Shown: in pieces, positions 202 to 33,883 of the stretch | How the letters are laid out: every line of letters starts with the position of its first letter | Position numbering within the stretch: position 1 is the first letter of the stretch | Assembly: GCF_022647885.1 (NCBI RefSeq) | Contig: NZ_JALCLM010000001.1 | Coordinates: 1,656,610-1,720,609, forward strand | Length of the DNA: 64,000 nt | Reading direction: 5' to 3' | Origin: Bifidobacterium sp. | Lineage (GTDB): Bacteria; Actinomycetota; Actinomycetes; Actinomycetales; Bifidobacteriaceae | Notes under the pieces: generated by a model | What the model was told of the DNA's origin: nothing | The model's database searches: none | The model's input: only the letters and a program-made list of their open reading frames with translations | Position numbers and translations under genes: made by a program

Positions 202-870
202 ATGGATAGGGCTAAACGAGGACCCTATGCGAAAGGCAAAGCGCGACGAAAAGAAATCCTGAAGGCCGCGCTCAACATTGTTGCCAAGGAAGGCTTCGAC
301 CAAACAACATTAAGTAAGATCTCCAAAGCCGTAGGCATTTCAGATGTGGCCGTGCTACATTATTTCGGGACAATGGATGATTTGCTAGTTGAAGTACTCA
401 AACAGCGCGATACCGATGACATGGCAGCAGCCACTTCGTCACTCCCTGACATGGTTAGCCAGATGATACAGCTCATTGCCCACCCTGAGCAGTCAATCAA
501 GCAAGTCATGCAGATCGTCAGGCGTAACTCGCAAACACCTGGACTAGTGGAACTCTACGCACATATGTCAGTGAGAGCATCAGACCCTACAAGTCCTGCA
601 TACCGATATTTCAAGCAACGTGGCAAGGTGGAACGGTTTGTGGTAGGAAGCGCTGCAAAAAAAGTCATCGACAAAGAGCATCTGGATACAGAATTATCCC
701 CAGAAGAAATGGCAAGAGTAATGCAAGCTCTGCTAGATGGTTTACAGATTCAATGGCTCATCGACAGAGACATCGATATGGCTGATATTGCAGAAAAAGC
801 CATCAAGCTAATGTGGAATCAGCCTCAAAGCACTAATGAGAGCAAAGACACAAGCGACGAAATCCTTTGA
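202..870 (+). CDS. TetR/AcrR family transcriptional regulator
   Basis: N-terminal HTH (RRKEILKAALNIVAKEGFDQTTLSKISKAVGISDVAVLHYF). GGAGG at 191-195 precedes ATG 202, so the start is moved from the ORF-track 49. Confidence 0.9.
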   Translation: MDRAKRGPYAKGKARRKEILKAALNIVAKEGFDQTTLSKISKAVGISDVAVLHYFGTMDDLLVEVLKQRDTDDMAAATSSLPDMVSQMIQLIAHPEQSIKQVMQIVRRNSQTPGLVELYAHMSVRASDPTSPAYRYFKQRGKVERFVVGSAAKKVIDKEHLDTELSPEEMARVMQALLDGLQIQWLIDRDIDMADIAEKAIKLMWNQPQSTNESKDTSDEIL

Positions 871-1417: not shown

Positions 1418-3536
1418 TTAGAGGACTTTCCTGACGACAATCACCACTATTCCGACTAGCAACACTATTACACCGGCCAAAATAATGACTTGAATCGAAC
1501 TTCCGGTAAAGGCAAGTTGTTTCTGTGTTGAATCTGAATTCTTAGCAACCGTATTGTTGCTGGATGTATTCTTATCGGTCAAGTCGTTCTTGCCCGTTGT
1601 CGCGCTCTTGCCGATGGCGAAGTTCGTCCATCCTTGGATGTTGCCCTCCTGGTCATACAACGCTATCTTGTGCGCACCAGAGTAGCCTGCGGGGAGCTGT
1701 ACGTTGACGTAGTACTTGCCGTTGTTGTCCTTTTGCACAAGTAGATGATTTTGCCCGTCAGGAGTGAGCAGGCGGGTTGGTGTGGAGTAGATGTACCCTG
1801 CCCAATAGCAGTAGAGCCCCTCATCTACCAGTGTCTTGCAGCTATCAACCAGCTTGTTAATATACACACGATACGGTGAATCCGGATTCGCTGAATTGTT
1901 GTTCTCCCCCTTGATGTCGCCCTTGTTGCCGTCGTTCAATTCACCCTCGTCTACCGGGGTAACAGACTGTGTGGTGAACTCGGGGATGAGTGCCGCATCA
2001 TTGGTGTTCTGCTTGATAATGCGACCGTCCTTGGTGAACAGCACCAGACCTGTGTACTGGTACGAGGCGGGGTCAGTTTTCGAGAGTGTCGGCCAAGCAT
2101 TCTTGTCTTTATACAATTCGCTGAACTGTGCAGACGTATACCCATCGAACAATCCAAGTAGTGAATATGCTGGCAACGACCAGAGATTGGGCACACCCTT
2201 GGTGTCATACCCACAAGCACCGCCCCCACCGGCACTGCTGCATGTGAGCGTGGAACTTGGCCGCAGCTGTTCACCTGTCTCGCTATACAGCCAGTTGCCA
2301 TACTTGGTGTTGTCGAGGAATCCGCCCAGCGTGGTCGACACGGTACCGGTTCTGCTTGCAAGCGTTTCCTTGGTGAAATCGTCTGATGACCTGCTGAAGG
2401 ACTGGTAGTTCACCGTCCATTTGCTGCCCTCTTCAAGGGGATACCACTGTTCGCTGGTTTCAGTGTCAGAATGTACTGCGTATATTCGCGCTCGTTTGAG
2501 TGCTGAGTCTTGTGACAGGGCTGAGTCATCGACTCCGCTGGTGCAATCCCAGAGATTTGTTGAACCCGGATCCCAACCAGTGGTCATACCCGGATGTATC
2601 GAAGCGAGGAATACGCGTGAAAAGCTTGACGAGAGGCACACCTTATCGACCTGATCCCAGAGTTCCTGACTGATTTCATAATCAACCTTCAAACCGACCG
2701 TGTGGGAGCCAACATCCTCCACACGAGGATTCGACACCTTGATGTCATCACTATCTGCGATAGTCACCTGCGTCAGTGAGATATTGGCATTCACCGAGGC
2801 TCCATGCCCAGCGTCATACGTGAAATGGACACGCCTAGTCAATAAGCCATCACCTGCGTACACGTCTCGCGTCAACCCTGTAACAATCGAACCTTCAAGC
2901 GCCTCACCGTTATCCCCCGAGAAATTAGAAACTTTCGATGCATCGAACCATGGCACCAGTGACTTCAGGTCGAAGGTACCGTCATCCCCGAAGAATCCTT
3001 TGGCATAATCCAAGTAGCCGATTGTCAGACCGCTAACGCTTGCTCCGAGCTTCAATGCCACGAGAGGGTTACCACCAACATTCAACGTGGTGACATGCGT
3101 ATTGGCTGACAGGTCGAGACCCGTCAGCTTGTTGTTGTAGACGTTCACTTCAACGAGTTGATGGTTATGACTCACATCCAGTTCACTCACATACGCTCCT
3201 GGAATGAAGAGATTCGTCAGCTCCGTGAAATACTCGATGCCTTGCACGGAATGGAACTTCTGGGAATCATCCAGATACTCACTGACATGAATGCTCTGCG
3301 CATTCGAGATTTCATCAGCCGACAACGAGCCGTTAGTATCAGTGTCGAAATGCTCCGACACATATCCACGGAACACCGCATCAGGGAAATTGCTCTCATT
3401 GACCGCCACATCACTGGTCGCGGCCGAAGCTGCGGGAGCGACCATCGCTCCGAATGTCAAACCCACCATCAGCAGGGCAGCTAGCAGGAGACAGCTAGAA
3501 CGATGCCCCCCCCCCCGTCATTATCTTCTTGCTCAT
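1418..3536 (-). CDS. Sortase-anchored leucine-rich-repeat surface protein, 5' end frameshifted in a poly-G tract
   Basis: NFPDAVFRGYV...DTNGSLSADEI cap, then LRR-like repeats (LTNLFIP, LDVSHNHQL, LDLSANTHV). C-terminal LAFTG + hydrophobic helix + RK tail. AGGAGA precedes ATG 3536, which is one base out of frame with the 3469-1418 ORF. Confidence 0.8.
3506..3516 (-). repeat. G11 homopolymer (C11 on + strand) in signal-peptide coding region
   Basis: cgatg-CCCCCCCCCCC-gtca at 3501-3520. Confidence 0.9.
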
Positions 3537-3941
3537 GCTTCTCCTAGATTTCTCTCGTGTTGTTGAACCGGACACGGTAGGACCGCGCACTAGAAGATAG
3601 TAACAGAAATTTAATACGTAGTGTTTGATATTTGACAATATATTGCTTACCGTTGGCGTGCCCTCGCTGCCACACGAATGTATTCTTTTCTTAACCGCTA
3701 TGCACTCCTAACTCTATATACCAGAGCGTTTCATTACCTAGATAGATTCAATGAGTAAATCCACTACTTAGACAGAGCAGGTAAGCATAATGGGCAGGAA
3801 GAACAAGTGTAATCCCCCGCGCCTAAGACCAATCAGTTTGTGATAACAACAGAACTTGCAATCGAGCATTGTTCTACTATTACCAGTGAGACCCTATGCG
3901 CCTGTAGCAGTTACAGCAAACTCAATGGAGGGAGATTCACA

Positions 3942-4283
3942 ATGGATGCGAGCAAACGCGGACCTTATGCCAAAGGCAAGGTTCGGCGTAAAGAAATTCT
4001 GGATGCAGCTCTCACTATTGTTGGTTCCGATGGTTTCGACCAAACCACATTGAGTAAAATCTCAGAAGTGGTAGGCATTTCTGACGTGGCCGTACTACAT
4101 TACTTCGATTCAATGGATGATCTGATGATCCAAGTACTCAAACAGCGCGACCTCAACGACATTCAAAGCACTGAAACATCAATGCCGGATAGAAGCGTCG
4201 ACATGAGGAGTATTGCAGGGCAAGCGATCAATCGCTTGCTGTGTCGCCAAGCCCCAGCAAGCCAAGATATTACTGAGCAATAA
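3942..4283 (+). pseudogene. Truncated TetR family regulator, paralog of 202-870
   Basis: First 70 aa are 55/70 identical to the 202-870 protein by manual alignment. Similarity is lost after about SMPD and the ORF stops at 113 aa, lacking the ligand-binding domain. Confidence 0.75.
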
Positions 4284-5286: not shown

Positions 5287-5396
5287 GGAATTATGATGCA
5301 GAAAACTATGATTCAGAAAACTAAAAGCAATCTCAAGTTGTGAGAATTCATCACATTACACCATTCACTACAACAGACAAAGGAGCCATAAGCCTT

Positions 5397-6161
5397 ATGG
5401 TGAGCATTGATATTAACAGCGACATGGGAGAGAGTTTCGGACGCTGGACACTAGGCGATGACACCTCAATGCTTGGACTCATATCTAGTGCCAATATCGC
5501 TTGCGGTTTCCATGCAGGCGACCCTAGCGTCATGTTGCGAACCCTAACCAAAGCACACCAACATCAAGTCTGCATCGGGGCTCATGTCTCCTACAGAGAC
5601 CTAGCTGGTTTTGGCAGGCGATCTATCGATGTTCCGGCTGAGGTGTTGCAAGCTGATGTTGAATACCAACTAGCTGCGATACAAGGTCTGGCGAACGCTA
5701 CAGGTTCTGCTGTTCGCTATGTAAAACCACACGGAGCTCTGTACAACCGAATTGTCGATGACGAAGTTCAAGCATCGGCAGTAGTTCATGCAATTGTGGC
5801 TCTCAACGCCAATCTTGGACTGCTGACATTACCTGATTCAGCAGTTGGCAAACTTGCTGATGAGGCAGGATTGCGAGTATTTCATGAAGCCTTTGCAGAT
5901 CGCGCTTACACGCCGGAAGGACGTTTAGTATCTCGCAACTTGCCAGATTCAGTCATTAGCGACCCTGCAGCTGTTGCTCAACGAGTTTCGCAGCTGGTTC
6001 TGACTCATCACATCGAAGCAATCGATGGATCAACAATCGCCGTTTCTGCGGATTCTGTTTGTGTACATGGCGACACCCCAGGAGCAGTCGCCATGGCGAA
6101 ATCCATAAATCATCGGCTATCTGAGGATGGCATCAATATCGCCTCATTCATGGATCGGTAA
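5397..6161 (+). CDS. pxpA: LamB/YcsF family 5-oxoprolinase subunit A
   Basis: IDINSDMGES, SANIACGFHAGD, GAHVSY.DLAGFGRR, YVKPHGALYN, EAFADRAY, SVCVHGDTPGA. AAGGAG upstream of ATG 5397. Confidence 0.9.
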   Translation: MVSIDINSDMGESFGRWTLGDDTSMLGLISSANIACGFHAGDPSVMLRTLTKAHQHQVCIGAHVSYRDLAGFGRRSIDVPAEVLQADVEYQLAAIQGLANATGSAVRYVKPHGALYNRIVDDEVQASAVVHAIVALNANLGLLTLPDSAVGKLADEAGLRVFHEAFADRAYTPEGRLVSRNLPDSVISDPAAVAQRVSQLVLTHHIEAIDGSTIAVSADSVCVHGDTPGAVAMAKSINHRLSEDGINIASFMDR

Positions 6162-11094: not shown

Positions 11095-12510
11095 TTACTG
11101 GTTCCGGTGATGTTTTCGAGAACGACTTATAGCAATTCCCGCTGTACCTACAGCAGTCAAAACCGTAAACACGATTGCTGCCGCAACTACTGCACTACCG
11201 CTACCTGTTTTTGCTAACGATGATGTCTTCTTGGTATCTTCTGCTGATGTTGTTTTGTTCTTATGCGTGGTTGTGGGTTCCGTGGTTGTAGGATCTGTGG
11301 TCGTTGGCTCCGTAGTCGTAGGCTCCGTAGTCGTAGGCTCCGTAGTCGTAGGCTCCGTAGTCGTAGGCTCCGTAGTCGTAGGCTCCGTAGTCGTAGGCTC
11401 CGTAGTCGTAGGCTCCGTAGTCGTAGGCTCCGTAGTCGTGATTACCGGAGTTACTGGATCGGTAGGATCTTTAGTTGGCACCACTGGTGGCACTTTACCT
11501 TTATAAGGGAAATAGTGTTGTTCCGATCCTCCGAAAGTACCGCTCTTAACCACAATGGTTCCTTGAATATTCGCTGATTTTTTCTCCAAGTTTGCTTTGG
11601 GTGCTAACAACGATCCATCGAGAGAATCCCCCGATTGCACGACACTACTTGCATCTGCAGCAACCCACAGCATTGCACTTGGGTCTCTGCTTCCGGCAAG
11701 AGTGAGATTGAAGGTCACTGATGAACCAGAAATTGGAATCACTAAAAAGGTCCCGTCGTCAGCCTTTGGTGTTGTTCCACTAAACGTAATTTCGGTAAGT
11801 GAAGCTAGAGTATCCGCACTGATGGGCCAATAATTTGTTTTTCCCTTGCTCAACGTGACCGTTGATTTGCTACCTTGAATCTCAACTGCTGCTTGAGCTC
11901 CTTGGGTATCAGTTTGTGGATAAGCCGCAATTTGTTGAGCAAGAGACTCCGCAGCACTCTGAGTGAAGAGACTGGCAAATAATCCAGATTTCACTACTGT
12001 GTCGGAACCTTCTCTTGAATTGTTAGCCACAATACTTGGTGAACTGTTCACACCCGCATTTTTCGCCACCACATGTGTGAATATTTGAGCGTTGTTATTA
12101 TCCCGATTAAGCACATCTATTTGTGTATCATCCTCAATCCTTATCGATCCAGTCAACACTTTCAACTGACCTGAGGAATTGCTCAGATCAACCTTATTGC
12201 TTAACAGGCCAATGCCTGAATCATCATCGGTAGTGCTATGTTGTGTTGCAGTGTTGGTGCCGCTGAAACTCAATGTTCCACCCACCGCAACAGCCCCTTC
12301 TGATTCGGCTTGAAGATATGCGTCGCCGTATGTTACAACATTCCATTGCATATAATCCGCCATCAGATACTCTTCTTGGCTAGCGGATGCGGATAATTGT
12401 GGCACCAGTACACCAAATGCCACTACCGATGCAATCAACGCACCGGAAACAATCGCCAGACCTCTATGAGGTTTAGCGGCATTGCTATGAATTTTCATAA
12501 TATTTCCCAA
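11095..12510 (-). CDS. Sortase-anchored adhesin, choice-of-anchor A-like domain plus Pro/Thr-rich stalk
   Basis: Signal peptide ending ASA. Domain motifs WNVVTYGD...ESEGAVAVGG and GSLLAPKA...IQGTIV...SEQHYFPY. PTTTE repeats, then LAKTG + TM + RSRKHH tail. Confidence 0.8.
   Translation of the reverse strand: MGNIMKIHSNAAKPHRGLAIVSGALIASVVAFGVLVPQLSASASQEEYLMADYMQWNVVTYGDAYLQAESEGAVAVGGTLSFSGTNTATQHSTTDDDSGIGLLSNKVDLSNSSGQLKVLTGSIRIEDDTQIDVLNRDNNNAQIFTHVVAKNAGVNSSPSIVANNSREGSDTVVKSGLFASLFTQSAAESLAQQIAAYPQTDTQGAQAAVEIQGSKSTVTLSKGKTNYWPISADTLASLTEITFSGTTPKADDGTFLVIPISGSSVTFNLTLAGSRDPSAMLWVAADASSVVQSGDSLDGSLLAPKANLEKKSANIQGTIVVKSGTFGGSEQHYFPYKGKVPPVVPTKDPTDPVTPVITTTEPTTTEPTTTEPTTTEPTTTEPTTTEPTTTEPTTTEPTTTEPTTTDPTTTEPTTTHKNKTTSAEDTKKTSSLAKTGSGSAVVAAAIVFTVLTAVGTAGIAISRSRKHHRNQ
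11306..11440. repeat. 15-bp tandem repeat x9 encoding the PTTTE stalk
   Basis: GGCTCCGTAGTCGTA unit: 8 exact copies plus 1 with a last-base change; degenerate units continue to about 11276. Confidence 0.95.
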
Positions 12511-30726: not shown

Positions 30727-33549
30727 TCAGTGCATGCGTTTACGAATAATCACCGTAATTGTGACACCTGTAAGTAACAGCAAGGTAGCAACTGCCATCA
30801 GAACAGAACTTTGCGCACCTGTAGTCGCGAGCGCATCCGTCTTCTTGGATGCCTTACTATTGCCGGCATTGTTCTTGGTATTTCCCTTGTGCTGCGTGTT
30901 GTTGGATGTAGTAGGAGTCGATGTGTTGCCTTTGTCAGTACCAGGTTGAGTTGAAGCATCGCTTTGAGTTTCTACAGAAGCCACGTTCTGGCCAGTAGTA
31001 ACCTTCACCACATTCCCCTTGGTATCTACAGTGACTTTAGCGCTGTATGCGGCAGCAAGATTGATTCTTCCCCAACCCTCGCTCGAAGCATCGAGGGGGT
31101 AACCGGAGTCGATCTCTGTTGATGCTAGAACTTGCTTCAGCTGTGCGTCGCTTAAGGAGCTGTAACCAGCAACGTTGCGTAACAGGTTAACCGCTGCGTC
31201 GGGAACAACTGCAGCTTGTCCCGTTTTACCTGTCTGGGTAAAACCGTAGGTCATCCGTGATGTGTAAGCAGCAATTGCGCTCGTTGTATCAGTTACAGTC
31301 TTCGTTGAAACGCTGTCTGTGAAGGAGTTTTGGTAGCCCTTAGAGCTCTTTGCATCTGTGGCAGTGATGCATGATTCCAAGGTGTCACCATAACCGTCAG
31401 CTTTGCATCGCGAAGTCAGATAGCTGACAAGCTCTTGACGTGCTGATTGTTCTTCTGCACTCACACTTTGGTCATTCAGTGCAGTTGCTACACCGTACTG
31501 ACCAGCAATGTGTCCGCCCATAATGTCGAGTGGATAATGCACGCCGAGCACGATACGGTTGTTGCCCGCCTCAGATACACGAGTCATAATTTGGGTGCCA
31601 AATTCAGGCAGAATGCTGGCCAGTCCAGCTCCCTGAGTGAAAGCGAAAGTGGTGTGACCAGATGGGAAAGAACCCGATGATGCGAGGCCGTCATATTGAC
31701 CTTGTTGTTCATACGCAGCCACCTTCTTAATTCCCAGCGTCTGTTGCAAACCGTTGAGATTAAGCGTTGTGCCATTGTAATTCACACGATCTACGTATGG
31801 GCGTGGGTGCGAAAAGGCGGTTTTGGCCTTGCCGGTGCTAGCTGAAGCGCTCATATCTTTCAGATAATCTGCGGTCTTGGAGAGCTTGCCACCGTTAATG
31901 CCTTCCTCATAATAATTACCTATAACAGTTCCTAGGGCATCATGAAGAGTCTTCTCTGAGTTCATTTCTGCATCAACCACGGCTCTGGCCTGCTGGTCGT
32001 TGGTACCATTAGCTGTTTCAGTTGCCGCTTTATTGTTGATTGACACAGTCAAATCATCATCGTGCTTCAACACGCTGCTACCTGCTGCAGTAACACCGAC
32101 ACCTGCCTGCCAATATTTACCGAAATCTGCAAGCAATCCAGTTATCGCGTCCGTGCTGGACACACTCACTGAGGGTTTGCTGTTACCGAAGGAGATGCTG
32201 AGAATATTCTGCTTGTCTGCGCTCAACGTAACTTTGGCGCTGTATGCCTTAGCAAGATTCAACCGTTCATAACCATTTGATGATGAATCAAAAGGATAGC
32301 CTGAATCAATTTCACTTGCTGCCAAAATCGCTTTGCGCTGTGAACCCGTCAACGTGGGGAAAGCTGTGAGAAGCAAGTTCTCTGCACCCTCTGGAACTAC
32401 GGCTGCTTTACCTGATGCACTGGTTTGATTAAAGCCGTAAGTCATGCGTGCTGTGTAAGCAGATATTGCTGAAGCACGATCTGTGACAGGCGTGGTTGAA
32501 ACAGCGTCAGTGAATGTATTGGTGTATCCATTGGCATCATTTGCCCCAGTTTTATCGATGCAATCCTGGAAAGTATCGCCGTAACCCGCAGCTTTGCACT
32601 GTGCGGTCATATAGTTAAGCAGCTCTTCTCTAGCTGGCAGCAGTTCGTCATTGCGGAAGTTTTCATCTGACCACCGTGAGGTATTCGCCGCTTCCCCGTT
32701 GATACGTCCACCCATTACATCGAGTGGATAATGCACTCCAAGAGCAATACGGTTGTTACCAGCTTCTGAAGCTCTAGTAACAATTTCGGTGCCTAATTCA
32801 GGCAGTAATGTAGCCAGACCGATTCCCGCAGAATATGCATAGGTGGTATGTCCCGAAGGGAATGCTTGTGAAGGCGCGGCAAACATACTTGCATAGCTTG
32901 CACTGTGCGTCAGCCCTGTGCTGGTATCTGTCCAATCAGCAATACGACTGATTTGCAGCTTTGACTTCAAACCGTTGAGGTTATTCTCCCCACTCATAGA
33001 ACGGTTTTGTCTGTCCTGAGCAACAGTGAAGAAAGGACGTGGATAATTGAAATATTGCTTTGCAGCACCTGTACCTAGATAAGTGGTTACCGTCGCAGTT
33101 TTGCTGAATAGTAAAGCATTGGTTTTGGGCAATGATCCATCATTAAGACCATTCACCAAGAATTTGCTCAGAATCGGACCAAGTGCATCTGAGTATGTCT
33201 CTTTAGCATTCTGATCCGCATCAATTAAGGCTCGTTGCGCCTGGGTGTGTGTGCCATCCACTGTTGCCGTGCTACTGGCAGTAGCGTTATTAATGCTCTC
33301 TGTCAGTGTGTCGTTCTTTGCCAGCACACTTTTGCCTGCTTCACTGACACTACCGCGGTAGACATCGTTGCTTGCGTTGCTTGCGTTCGCCTTAGGCGTC
33401 CACCAATTGTTATATTCACCCAGAAGGGTAACGACATTCGGTTTATTACTGTCTGACGTATAACTCGTTGCGGCTTGGGCTGCAGTGGCAGGTACTAGCG
33501 TGGCCAATGCAAGCACAGAAGCAGACACGAGTTTCAAAGCTCTCTTCAT
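30727..33549 (-). CDS. Sortase-anchored acid phosphatase with two tandem PAP2 domains
   Basis: Signal peptide ending AQA. Two motif sets: KQYFNYPRP / PSGH / NRIALGVHYPLD and KTAFSHPRP / PSGH / NRIVLGVHYPLD. C-terminal LATTG + TM + RKR. Confidence 0.88.
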   Translation of the reverse strand: MKRALKLVSASVLALATLVPATAAQAATSYTSDSNKPNVVTLLGEYNNWWTPKANASNASNDVYRGSVSEAGKSVLAKNDTLTESINNATASSTATVDGTHTQAQRALIDADQNAKETYSDALGPILSKFLVNGLNDGSLPKTNALLFSKTATVTTYLGTGAAKQYFNYPRPFFTVAQDRQNRSMSGENNLNGLKSKLQISRIADWTDTSTGLTHSASYASMFAAPSQAFPSGHTTYAYSAGIGLATLLPELGTEIVTRASEAGNNRIALGVHYPLDVMGGRINGEAANTSRWSDENFRNDELLPAREELLNYMTAQCKAAGYGDTFQDCIDKTGANDANGYTNTFTDAVSTTPVTDRASAISAYTARMTYGFNQTSASGKAAVVPEGAENLLLTAFPTLTGSQRKAILAASEIDSGYPFDSSSNGYERLNLAKAYSAKVTLSADKQNILSISFGNSKPSVSVSSTDAITGLLADFGKYWQAGVGVTAAGSSVLKHDDDLTVSINNKAATETANGTNDQQARAVVDAEMNSEKTLHDALGTVIGNYYEEGINGGKLSKTADYLKDMSASASTGKAKTAFSHPRPYVDRVNYNGTTLNLNGLQQTLGIKKVAAYEQQGQYDGLASSGSFPSGHTTFAFTQGAGLASILPEFGTQIMTRVSEAGNNRIVLGVHYPLDIMGGHIAGQYGVATALNDQSVSAEEQSARQELVSYLTSRCKADGYGDTLESCITATDAKSSKGYQNSFTDSVSTKTVTDTTSAIAAYTSRMTYGFTQTGKTGQAAVVPDAAVNLLRNVAGYSSLSDAQLKQVLASTEIDSGYPLDASSEGWGRINLAAAYSAKVTVDTKGNVVKVTTGQNVASVETQSDASTQPGTDKGNTSTPTTSNNTQHKGNTKNNAGNSKASKKTDALATTGAQSSVLMAVATLLLLTGVTITVIIRKRMH

Positions 33550-33883
33550 GTGTTCTCCAAATGTGTTCATGATTCATCAACCCTCGAGAACGTGCGCCAC
33601 ATCCCCATACACTGACGCATTTTTCACAACGGGGGTACTTCCGTTGTAAACCTCTAACTTCATCAGCCACGCCCCAAGGCATTGACCTTCATTCAGTGTT
33701 CATCCCAACTTCACCTAACTAGCCCTGACGCCGAAGGACATGAGACAAGTTGATACATCTGCAATACAATCAGTGTTTTCATCGAAATTCTGCGAAAATA
33801 TACCGACCCGTATTGCAGTTAACTCTGATCAGGACAAGAACTCGGCTGTGCAATGGTCTGCAAGGCATGACAAACTAAGAACT

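Follow-up and report, generated by a model that had tools for sequence, protein, structure and literature searches.

A G11 tract in the leader of an internalin-like surface-protein gene is a probable phase-variation switch in an uncultured bioreactor Bifidobacterium

Phase variation by poly-G tracts has so far been demonstrated in Bifidobacterium for the sortase-dependent pili of gut strains. Here we describe a gene for a predicted surface protein on the minus strand of a 64-kb stretch of Bifidobacterium DNA (the window), in which a run of 11 G's (G11) interrupts the leader, and which is probably turned on and off by changes in the length of that run. The nearest studied system is the bbr_0113a/bbr_0113b pilus locus of Bifidobacterium breve UCC2003, with a start open reading frame (ORF) at 164585-164608 and a G11 tract at 164606-164616 (Penno et al. 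2022, Sci Rep 12:9576, PMC9187656). In bbr_0113, G11 is OFF and G10 is ON. Maximum depth sequencing (MDS) was used to quantify the heterogeneity: G12 made up 60% and G11 37% of cultures, G10 increased to about 30% in the mouse gut, and tracts of G8 to G13 occur in the pilus loci of five species (PMC9187656). The original prediction for the window, made from its letters alone, had invoked this precedent, which is both real and close. Outside Bifidobacterium, nanH3 of Gardnerella piotii, which encodes a cell-surface-tethered sialidase, is controlled by a poly-C tract of 8-14 beside the signal-peptide region (Kurukulasuriya, Patterson & Hill; bioRxiv 10.1101/2020.09.16.300947). Gardnerella genomes contain about 20 poly-G/C tracts each, with a mean length of 10, many of them belonging to LPXTG surface-protein genes and about 70% of them in promoters, and these tracts vary between colony variants (bioRxiv 10.1101/2023.01.13.523976).

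The beginning of the gene has the layout expected of a translational switch. After a Shine-Dalgarno (SD) sequence the minus strand reads ATG AGC AAG AAG ATA ATG AC, then G11, then CAT CGT TCT AGC. The SD sequence, start codon and tract were located where they had been predicted, but the spacer between SD and start is 3 nt rather than the 4 nt first given (reading the SD as AGGAG would make it 4 nt). The elements of this region, in window coordinates, are as follows.

3540-3545, minus strand: Shine-Dalgarno sequence AGGAGA, 3 nt 5' of the start codon (sequence read)
3534-3536, minus strand: start codon ATG of the surface-protein gene; in contig L091 (G10; gene 910-2985) the Joint Genome Institute (JGI) gene caller also starts at this ATG
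3518-3520, minus strand: TGA closing the long frame just 5' of the tract (sequence read)
3506-3516, minus strand: G11 homopolymer (C11 on the plus strand), the putative slippage tract, 20 nt after the ATG (nucleotides 21-31 of the coding sequence)
3495-3497, minus strand: TAG ending the 13-codon OFF peptide (sequence read)
3467-3469, minus strand: internal ATG picked by ORF finders and annotators in the OFF phase, an implausible start (683-aa ORF)
3422-3505, minus strand: rest of the signal peptide in the long frame, HRSSCLLLAALLMVGLTFGAMVAPAASA, with predicted cleavage after ASA (from residues and hydropathy)
1418-3421, minus strand: mature surface protein and stop codon (from the ORF and substitution rates)
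3611-3638, minus strand: candidate promoter, TTGTCA (3638-3633), 16 nt, TATTAA (3616-3611), read by eye

Tract length determines whether a full-length or a short product can be made. Read from the ATG at 3536, the G11 frame encodes MSKKIMTGGGASF, a 13-codon peptide (3536-3498) that ends at the TAG as had been anticipated. G12 is likewise out of frame, and translation ends after 18 codons. Removal of one G or addition of two yields MSKKIMTGGG(G)HRSSCLLLAALLMVGLTFGAMVAPAASA-ATSD..., which reads through into the 683-codon ORF (3469-1418), and by frame arithmetic the product is 705 aa for G10 and 706 aa for G13. The claim that G10 or G13 would fuse a Sec-type leader to the intact ORF therefore stands, and the G10 product of the strain-B allele has in fact been called by the JGI gene caller (P0021 on L091, discussed below). 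The n-region of the joined leader contains three K/R residues, its h-region (17 residues) has a mean Kyte-Doolittle hydropathy of 2.35, and there is an A-x-A site. A lipoprotein signal can be discounted, since RSSC does not fit a lipobox.

No alternative full leader is available in the long frame, because the TGA at 3520-3518 closes it just upstream of the tract, as the original prediction had noted. The first start codon of that frame is the ATG at 3469, which has no SD sequence (upstream: TCCTGCTAGCTGCCCTGCTG) and which would keep just a 16-residue uncharged stub of the leader. It is therefore not a plausible start, even though the 669-aa call of P0002, a protein of a metagenome-assembled genome (MAG), begins at the same ATG.

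The tract itself is a long 5' coding mononucleotide run beyond what composition would give. No other G or C run in the 64-kb window reaches 7, and dinucleotide-preserving shuffles gave an expectation of 0.08 G runs of at least 9 per window. This indicates that the tract is not a chance feature. The candidate promoter is identical in loci L001 and L091 of strain B (the strain of MAG locus L001, introduced below) and partly conserved in Bifidobacterium crudilactis; a sigma-70 consensus scan upstream of the gene returned no promoter match.

The orthologue in B. crudilactis shows what the leader looks like without a tract. The nearest proteins to the product are B. crudilactis P0001 (88% identity) and P0002 (67% identity). 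The B. crudilactis gene (L002) begins TTG AGA ATA AGA AAC AAT AAT CAG GGG CAT CGT TCT AGC... and enters the same HRSSCLLL... leader in frame, with only G4 at the homologous site. Over the 36 nt from the tract to the internal ATG (3505-3470), the window and B. crudilactis differ at one position; their upstream regions are weakly alignable. Because B. crudilactis is in frame with G4 and these 36 nt are nearly identical, the region 5' of the ATG at 3469 must be coding, and G11 arose in this lineage by the lengthening of a short G run. The longer leader is thereby upheld, and with G11 out of frame the description of the window copy as being in the OFF phase holds.

Tract lengths in other DNA were taken from consensus contigs, comprising 23 runs available as Logan contigs plus JGI and other assemblies. 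Every run containing the sequence is a metagenome of bioreactor sludge or wastewater, and the host is an uncultured, low-GC Bifidobacterium of dairy or fermentation bioreactors. The GC content of the window is 47.6%; that of B. crudilactis is about 58% (PMC12160481). With a biotin-carboxylase gene of the window, the best match was 61%, to B. thermophilum, so either this species has no counterpart among the GTDB representatives searched or the gene is accessory. Two strains can be told apart. Strain A is the strain of the window. Strain B is that of L001, a locus of a MAG labeled 'Bifidobacterium sp.' by NCBI; it is a second strain of the window's species, since the flanks of L001 are 97-99% identical to the window. 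The leader and tract of the strain-B allele in L001 are identical to those of the window. Exact-pattern scans with leader and tract gave no match in genome contigs (one scan) or in metagenome contigs (two scans, the second using the conserved sequence just 3' of the tract).

Length differences on otherwise identical DNA were found for the strain-B allele, with both ON and OFF lengths present among the consensus contigs. Strain-B copies have G11 in L001, X10, X11 and X13, G12 in X12 (13x contig) and G10 in L091 (JGI 3300045594; contig of 3,444 nt). L091 and L001 align over 3,444 nt with 0 mismatches and 1 gap, the gap being the single G of the tract. In the G10 contig JGI independently called a 691-aa protein, P0021, that begins MSKKIMTGGGHRSSCLLLAALLMVGL (also given as MSKKIMTGGGHRSS...). 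Over 3 kb, X12 shares every single-nucleotide polymorphism (SNP) with X10 and X11, and the sole other difference is a CC/CCC indel at 5360. The strain-A allele was G11 in the window, in L088 and L090 (Logan), in L089 (JGI 3300051846, and five similar places) and in runs X1-X5. The original prediction had expected tract length to differ among strains or populations if the switch were real, and the G10, G11 and G12 copies on the strain-B background agree with that expectation.

The indel at 5360-5362 (plus strand) lies in the intergenic leader upstream of a LamB/YcsF-family gene (synteny with L001, PF03746); X10 and X11 carry the extra C and X12 does not. A 389-aa protein, P0028, was considered as a possible knock-out of the window allele and rejected, as it is merely cut by a contig end.

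In three further runs the assembly breaks at the tract. The contigs of X6 (119x), X7 and X8 stop 4-10 nt before the tract and restart in or at it (window 3496-3507), and a narrow re-lay of these runs found no short bridging unitigs there. At an ordinary SNP bubble of the same run (5785-5866), by contrast, the contigs overlap by the customary 30 nt. The breaks at the tract may reflect a mixture of lengths.

Several observations weigh against interpreting these lengths as a switch in operation. The ON length was found in only 1 of about 15 assemblies, and the assemblies are not independent. Every spanning contig of the strain-A allele has G11, and the protein collection contained no 705-aa version. 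The indel at 5360 makes X12 a slightly different sub-lineage from X10 and X11, and the lengths in the single contigs L091 and X12 may themselves be homopolymer miscalls. Breaks like those of X6-X8 could also arise from poly-G sequencing drop-out. Furthermore, all these lengths are those of consensus contigs.

The explanation that we favor, and consider probable, is that the gene is a translational phase-variation (contingency) switch operated by tract slippage. Slipped-strand mispairing at the G tract during replication would add or remove G's at high frequency, giving rise to subpopulations with 10, 11, 12 or more G's, and the protein would be translated only at 10 + 3n. In G10 or G13 cells, the start codon and charged n-region would be read in one frame with the remainder of the leader and the 695 codons downstream, and the protein would presumably be exported and linked to the wall through its LAFTG motif (ON). 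With G11 or G12, translation would end after 13 or 18 codons (OFF), the phase to which the window and most of the sampled populations would belong. Such changes would be reversible, and the ability to switch may have adaptive value.

An alternative is that the DNA is stably G11, that a low, constant amount of protein is produced through RNA polymerase slippage or +1/-2 ribosomal frameshifting, and that the length differences are incidental. RNA polymerase is known to slip on long homopolymers, most lengths are out of frame (every copy of the window allele, and 5 of the 6 assemblies that span the strain-B tract), and the ORF has been kept intact despite these lengths. However, the existence of a G10 DNA allele places the length change at the DNA level, and the RNA fold around the tract has no unusual structure (z = +0.72) that might stimulate such events, so there is no support for hairpin-stimulated transcriptional slippage. 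In addition, the variation in the nearest studied system was attributed to replication slippage measured on DNA. We regard this alternative as improbable, but it is compatible with phase variation rather than exclusive of it, and transcriptional slippage could add leaky expression from G11.

Slightly less likely still is that the tract has one fixed length, whether G10 in an intact gene or G11 in a frameshift mutant, and that the differences come from errors in sequencing or assembling the homopolymer. Every platform is prone to errors in homopolymers of at least 10, and Penno et al. caution that G-tract lengths in annotations may be incorrect (PMC9187656). G10 and G12 were each read from one contig, and the platforms of the runs are not on record. 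Yet G11 recurs in at least 10 separately built assemblies of both alleles (the window, two from JGI, and Logan runs at 4-82x), and a consensus call needs a majority of reads. Error also would not explain why a tract that is unique in 64 kb is placed exactly where the signal peptide toggles. For the window specifically, G11 was found again in at least 7 other assemblies of its allele, which makes unlikely a fixed G10 misassembled as G11, the outcome named beforehand as fatal to the switch. Least likely of all, in our judgment, is a pseudogene that was permanently frameshifted at a mutational hot spot and is decaying because an adhesin is useless in reactors. The predominance of OFF lengths and the truncation of the neighboring TetR gene would be in keeping with decay, as would the nonsense mutation of the tract-less B. 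crudilactis orthologue in 13-14 contigs, which indicates that loss is tolerated. In contrast to that nonsense mutation, however, a G11 frameshift readily reverts, and one G10 copy is in frame. Protein identity between the two alleles that carry the tract is only about 45-50% mid-gene, where synonymous sites are saturated, but each retains an uninterrupted ORF of about 690 codons, and neither has any other lesion in 695 codons. The ratio of nonsynonymous to synonymous substitution rates (dN/dS) is 0.29 between the window and strain-B alleles and 0.22 between the window and B. crudilactis. Intact ORFs in both deeply diverged alleles together with dN/dS values of about 0.2-0.3 argue that the gene is not a decaying pseudogene.

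The proposed phase variation concerns a protein with an internalin-type domain and a sortase-anchored layout. The domain and sorting signal are located as follows.

3044-3394, minus strand: internalin-J-like leucine-rich-repeat (LRR) domain (PDB 3bz5, AlphaFold, Foldseek)
1502-1516, minus strand: LAFTG sortase sorting motif, with a hydrophobic segment and then an RK tail after it (sequence read)

The LRR domain matched PDB 3bz5 (InlJ) at E=4.2e-17 over residues 39-154, and Foldseek matched it to InlB, InlC, InlA and InlJ. The AlphaFold model is usable for the LRR domain only: confidence (predicted local distance difference test, pLDDT) is 84-95 at residues 31-140 and about 73 by residue 150, with a mean of 47.5. 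These matches and the confident model of residues ~30-150 identify an internalin-type LRR domain. The protein is nevertheless not an InlJ orthologue, because the full-length NCBIfam family internalin_J was matched with 30 bits versus a cut-off of 1700 (E=1.7e-7). The central region after the LRR domain (about aa 155-600, ~450-500 residues) had no family match and a pLDDT below 50. At the two ends the layout is that of a sortase-anchored protein, with a MSKKIMTGGGHRSSCLLLAALLMVGLTFGAMVAPAASA leader and LAFTG-SSIQVIILAGVIVLLVGIVVIVV-RK. The match to NCBIfam NF058582 (LAVTG sortase-dependent surface protein) was weak (E=0.036) and below the cut-off. LAxTG is the motif of the class E 'housekeeping' sortases of Actinobacteria, and the LAFTG protein is a putative substrate of such a sortase.

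The switch gene stands alone between two TetR-family genes, outside any pilus operon.

3942-4283, plus strand: divergent TetR-family gene, 113 aa (218 aa in strain B), candidate regulator
202-870, plus strand: convergent TetR-family paralogue, 222 aa, downstream of the switch gene (annotation)

The neighbors are TetR-family, D-Glu cyclase, LamB/YcsF and aminotransferase genes; the whole 64-kb window has no TLxTC sortase ORF and no pilin genes. The gene is therefore not the first of a cluster with pilins and a dedicated sortase. It is possible that the divergent TetR gene regulates the switch gene. Compared with L001 1872-2528, this TetR gene (3942-4283) has lost about 312 bp at about 4188 and is truncated by that deletion, with the helix-turn-helix kept, and the same 113-aa TetR call was found in L088-L090. 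The window encodes two more predicted sortase substrates, at 11095-12510 (minus strand) and 30730-33573 (minus strand), with LAKTG and LATTG signals and without a homopolymer tract. In the former, about 11 TTEPT repeats stand in tandem and might likewise vary in length.

In 13-14 JGI contigs a TCG>TAG nonsense mutation at codon 311 (L092 2431-2433 versus L002 3931-3933) splits the tract-less B. crudilactis orthologue into 310 + 379 aa (P0023/P0024), and in L093 it is broken further. This nonsense mutation indicates that loss of the protein is tolerated, or even favored, in reactors, which fits the predominance of OFF lengths in the window's species.

The window allele is a mosaic (1418-3505, minus strand, compared with L001 and L002). 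Codons ~1-100 and ~550-695 are strain-B-like; codons ~100-550 are 94-98% identical in amino acids to B. crudilactis and 45-50% identical to strain B. On window 3350-3509, X5, X11 and X13 also contain minor 2-6x contigs with a B. crudilactis-type 5' end (…AGAAATCTTGAGAATAAGAAACAATAATCA) that diverge at the tract. These B. crudilactis-like contigs, which occur in the same runs as the window's species, indicate that both species are co-resident in the same reactors. The mosaic, the co-occurrence and a GC content of 51% in the switch gene, above that of its surroundings, suggest that the exposed middle of the protein may have been exchanged by recombination between the co-resident species.

A more speculative possibility, which we consider doubtful, is that the gene forms a contingency locus with two tiers, in a bifidobacterium living outside any host. 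The ON/OFF switch at the G tract would be combined with cassette-like replacement of the surface-exposed middle of the protein, through recombination with alleles shared with co-resident B. crudilactis, under strong counter-selection in reactors against expression (for example, of a phage receptor, or through a biofilm/planktonic trade-off). If correct, this would account for OFF dominance here as well as for the nonsense knock-out of the switch-less B. crudilactis copy.

Because the bacterium lives in fermentation reactors, host immunity cannot be the selective agent. Predicted surface proteomes will miss the protein, because pipelines call the 669- or 683-aa product from the internal ATG, without a signal peptide. 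Tract lengths in assemblies should be read as snapshots of populations.

Comparison with known systems places the locus closest to the bifidobacterial pilus switches. Like internalin J of Listeria monocytogenes (PDB 3bz5), the protein has a homologous N-terminal LRR domain and the same order of signal peptide, LRR and sorting signal, but only about 115 residues align and the other ~500 lack a recognizable family. The Gardnerella tracts are similarly tied to hypothetical surface proteins with LPXTG and internalin-type modules; unlike the ~20 tracts per Gardnerella genome, of which ~70% are in promoters, there is one coding tract in the 64 kb of genome viewed here. The resemblance to nanH3 is that of a non-pilus surface protein of the Bifidobacteriaceae whose out-of-frame lengths are annotated without a signal peptide, as in P0002 and the 683-aa ORF. 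However, the nanH3 tract is about 100 nt into a sialidase gene, after the signal peptide, whereas here the tract begins at nt 21, within the n-region of an LRR protein.

The likeness to bbr_0113 of B. breve is greater. Both are from the same genus and have a good SD sequence with G11 about 21 nt after the start (here nucleotides 21-31 of the coding sequence), so that the geometries agree to within one nucleotide. In both, the Sec signal and the sortase motif are in two ORFs separated by the tract, and the annotated downstream start lacks an SD sequence and a signal peptide. Both are OFF at G11 and ON at G10, and G12 is also seen in each. They differ in that the present gene is not in a pilus/sortase cluster, is flanked by TetR-family genes, and encodes an InlJ-like LRR protein with LAFTG rather than LPXTG. 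The B. breve strain is from the gut and was studied by MDS; the present host is from reactors or dairy, and its heterogeneity is deduced from assemblies. The locus would thus extend a near-identical device from pili to a stand-alone, internalin-like protein with a predicted LAFTG wall anchor.

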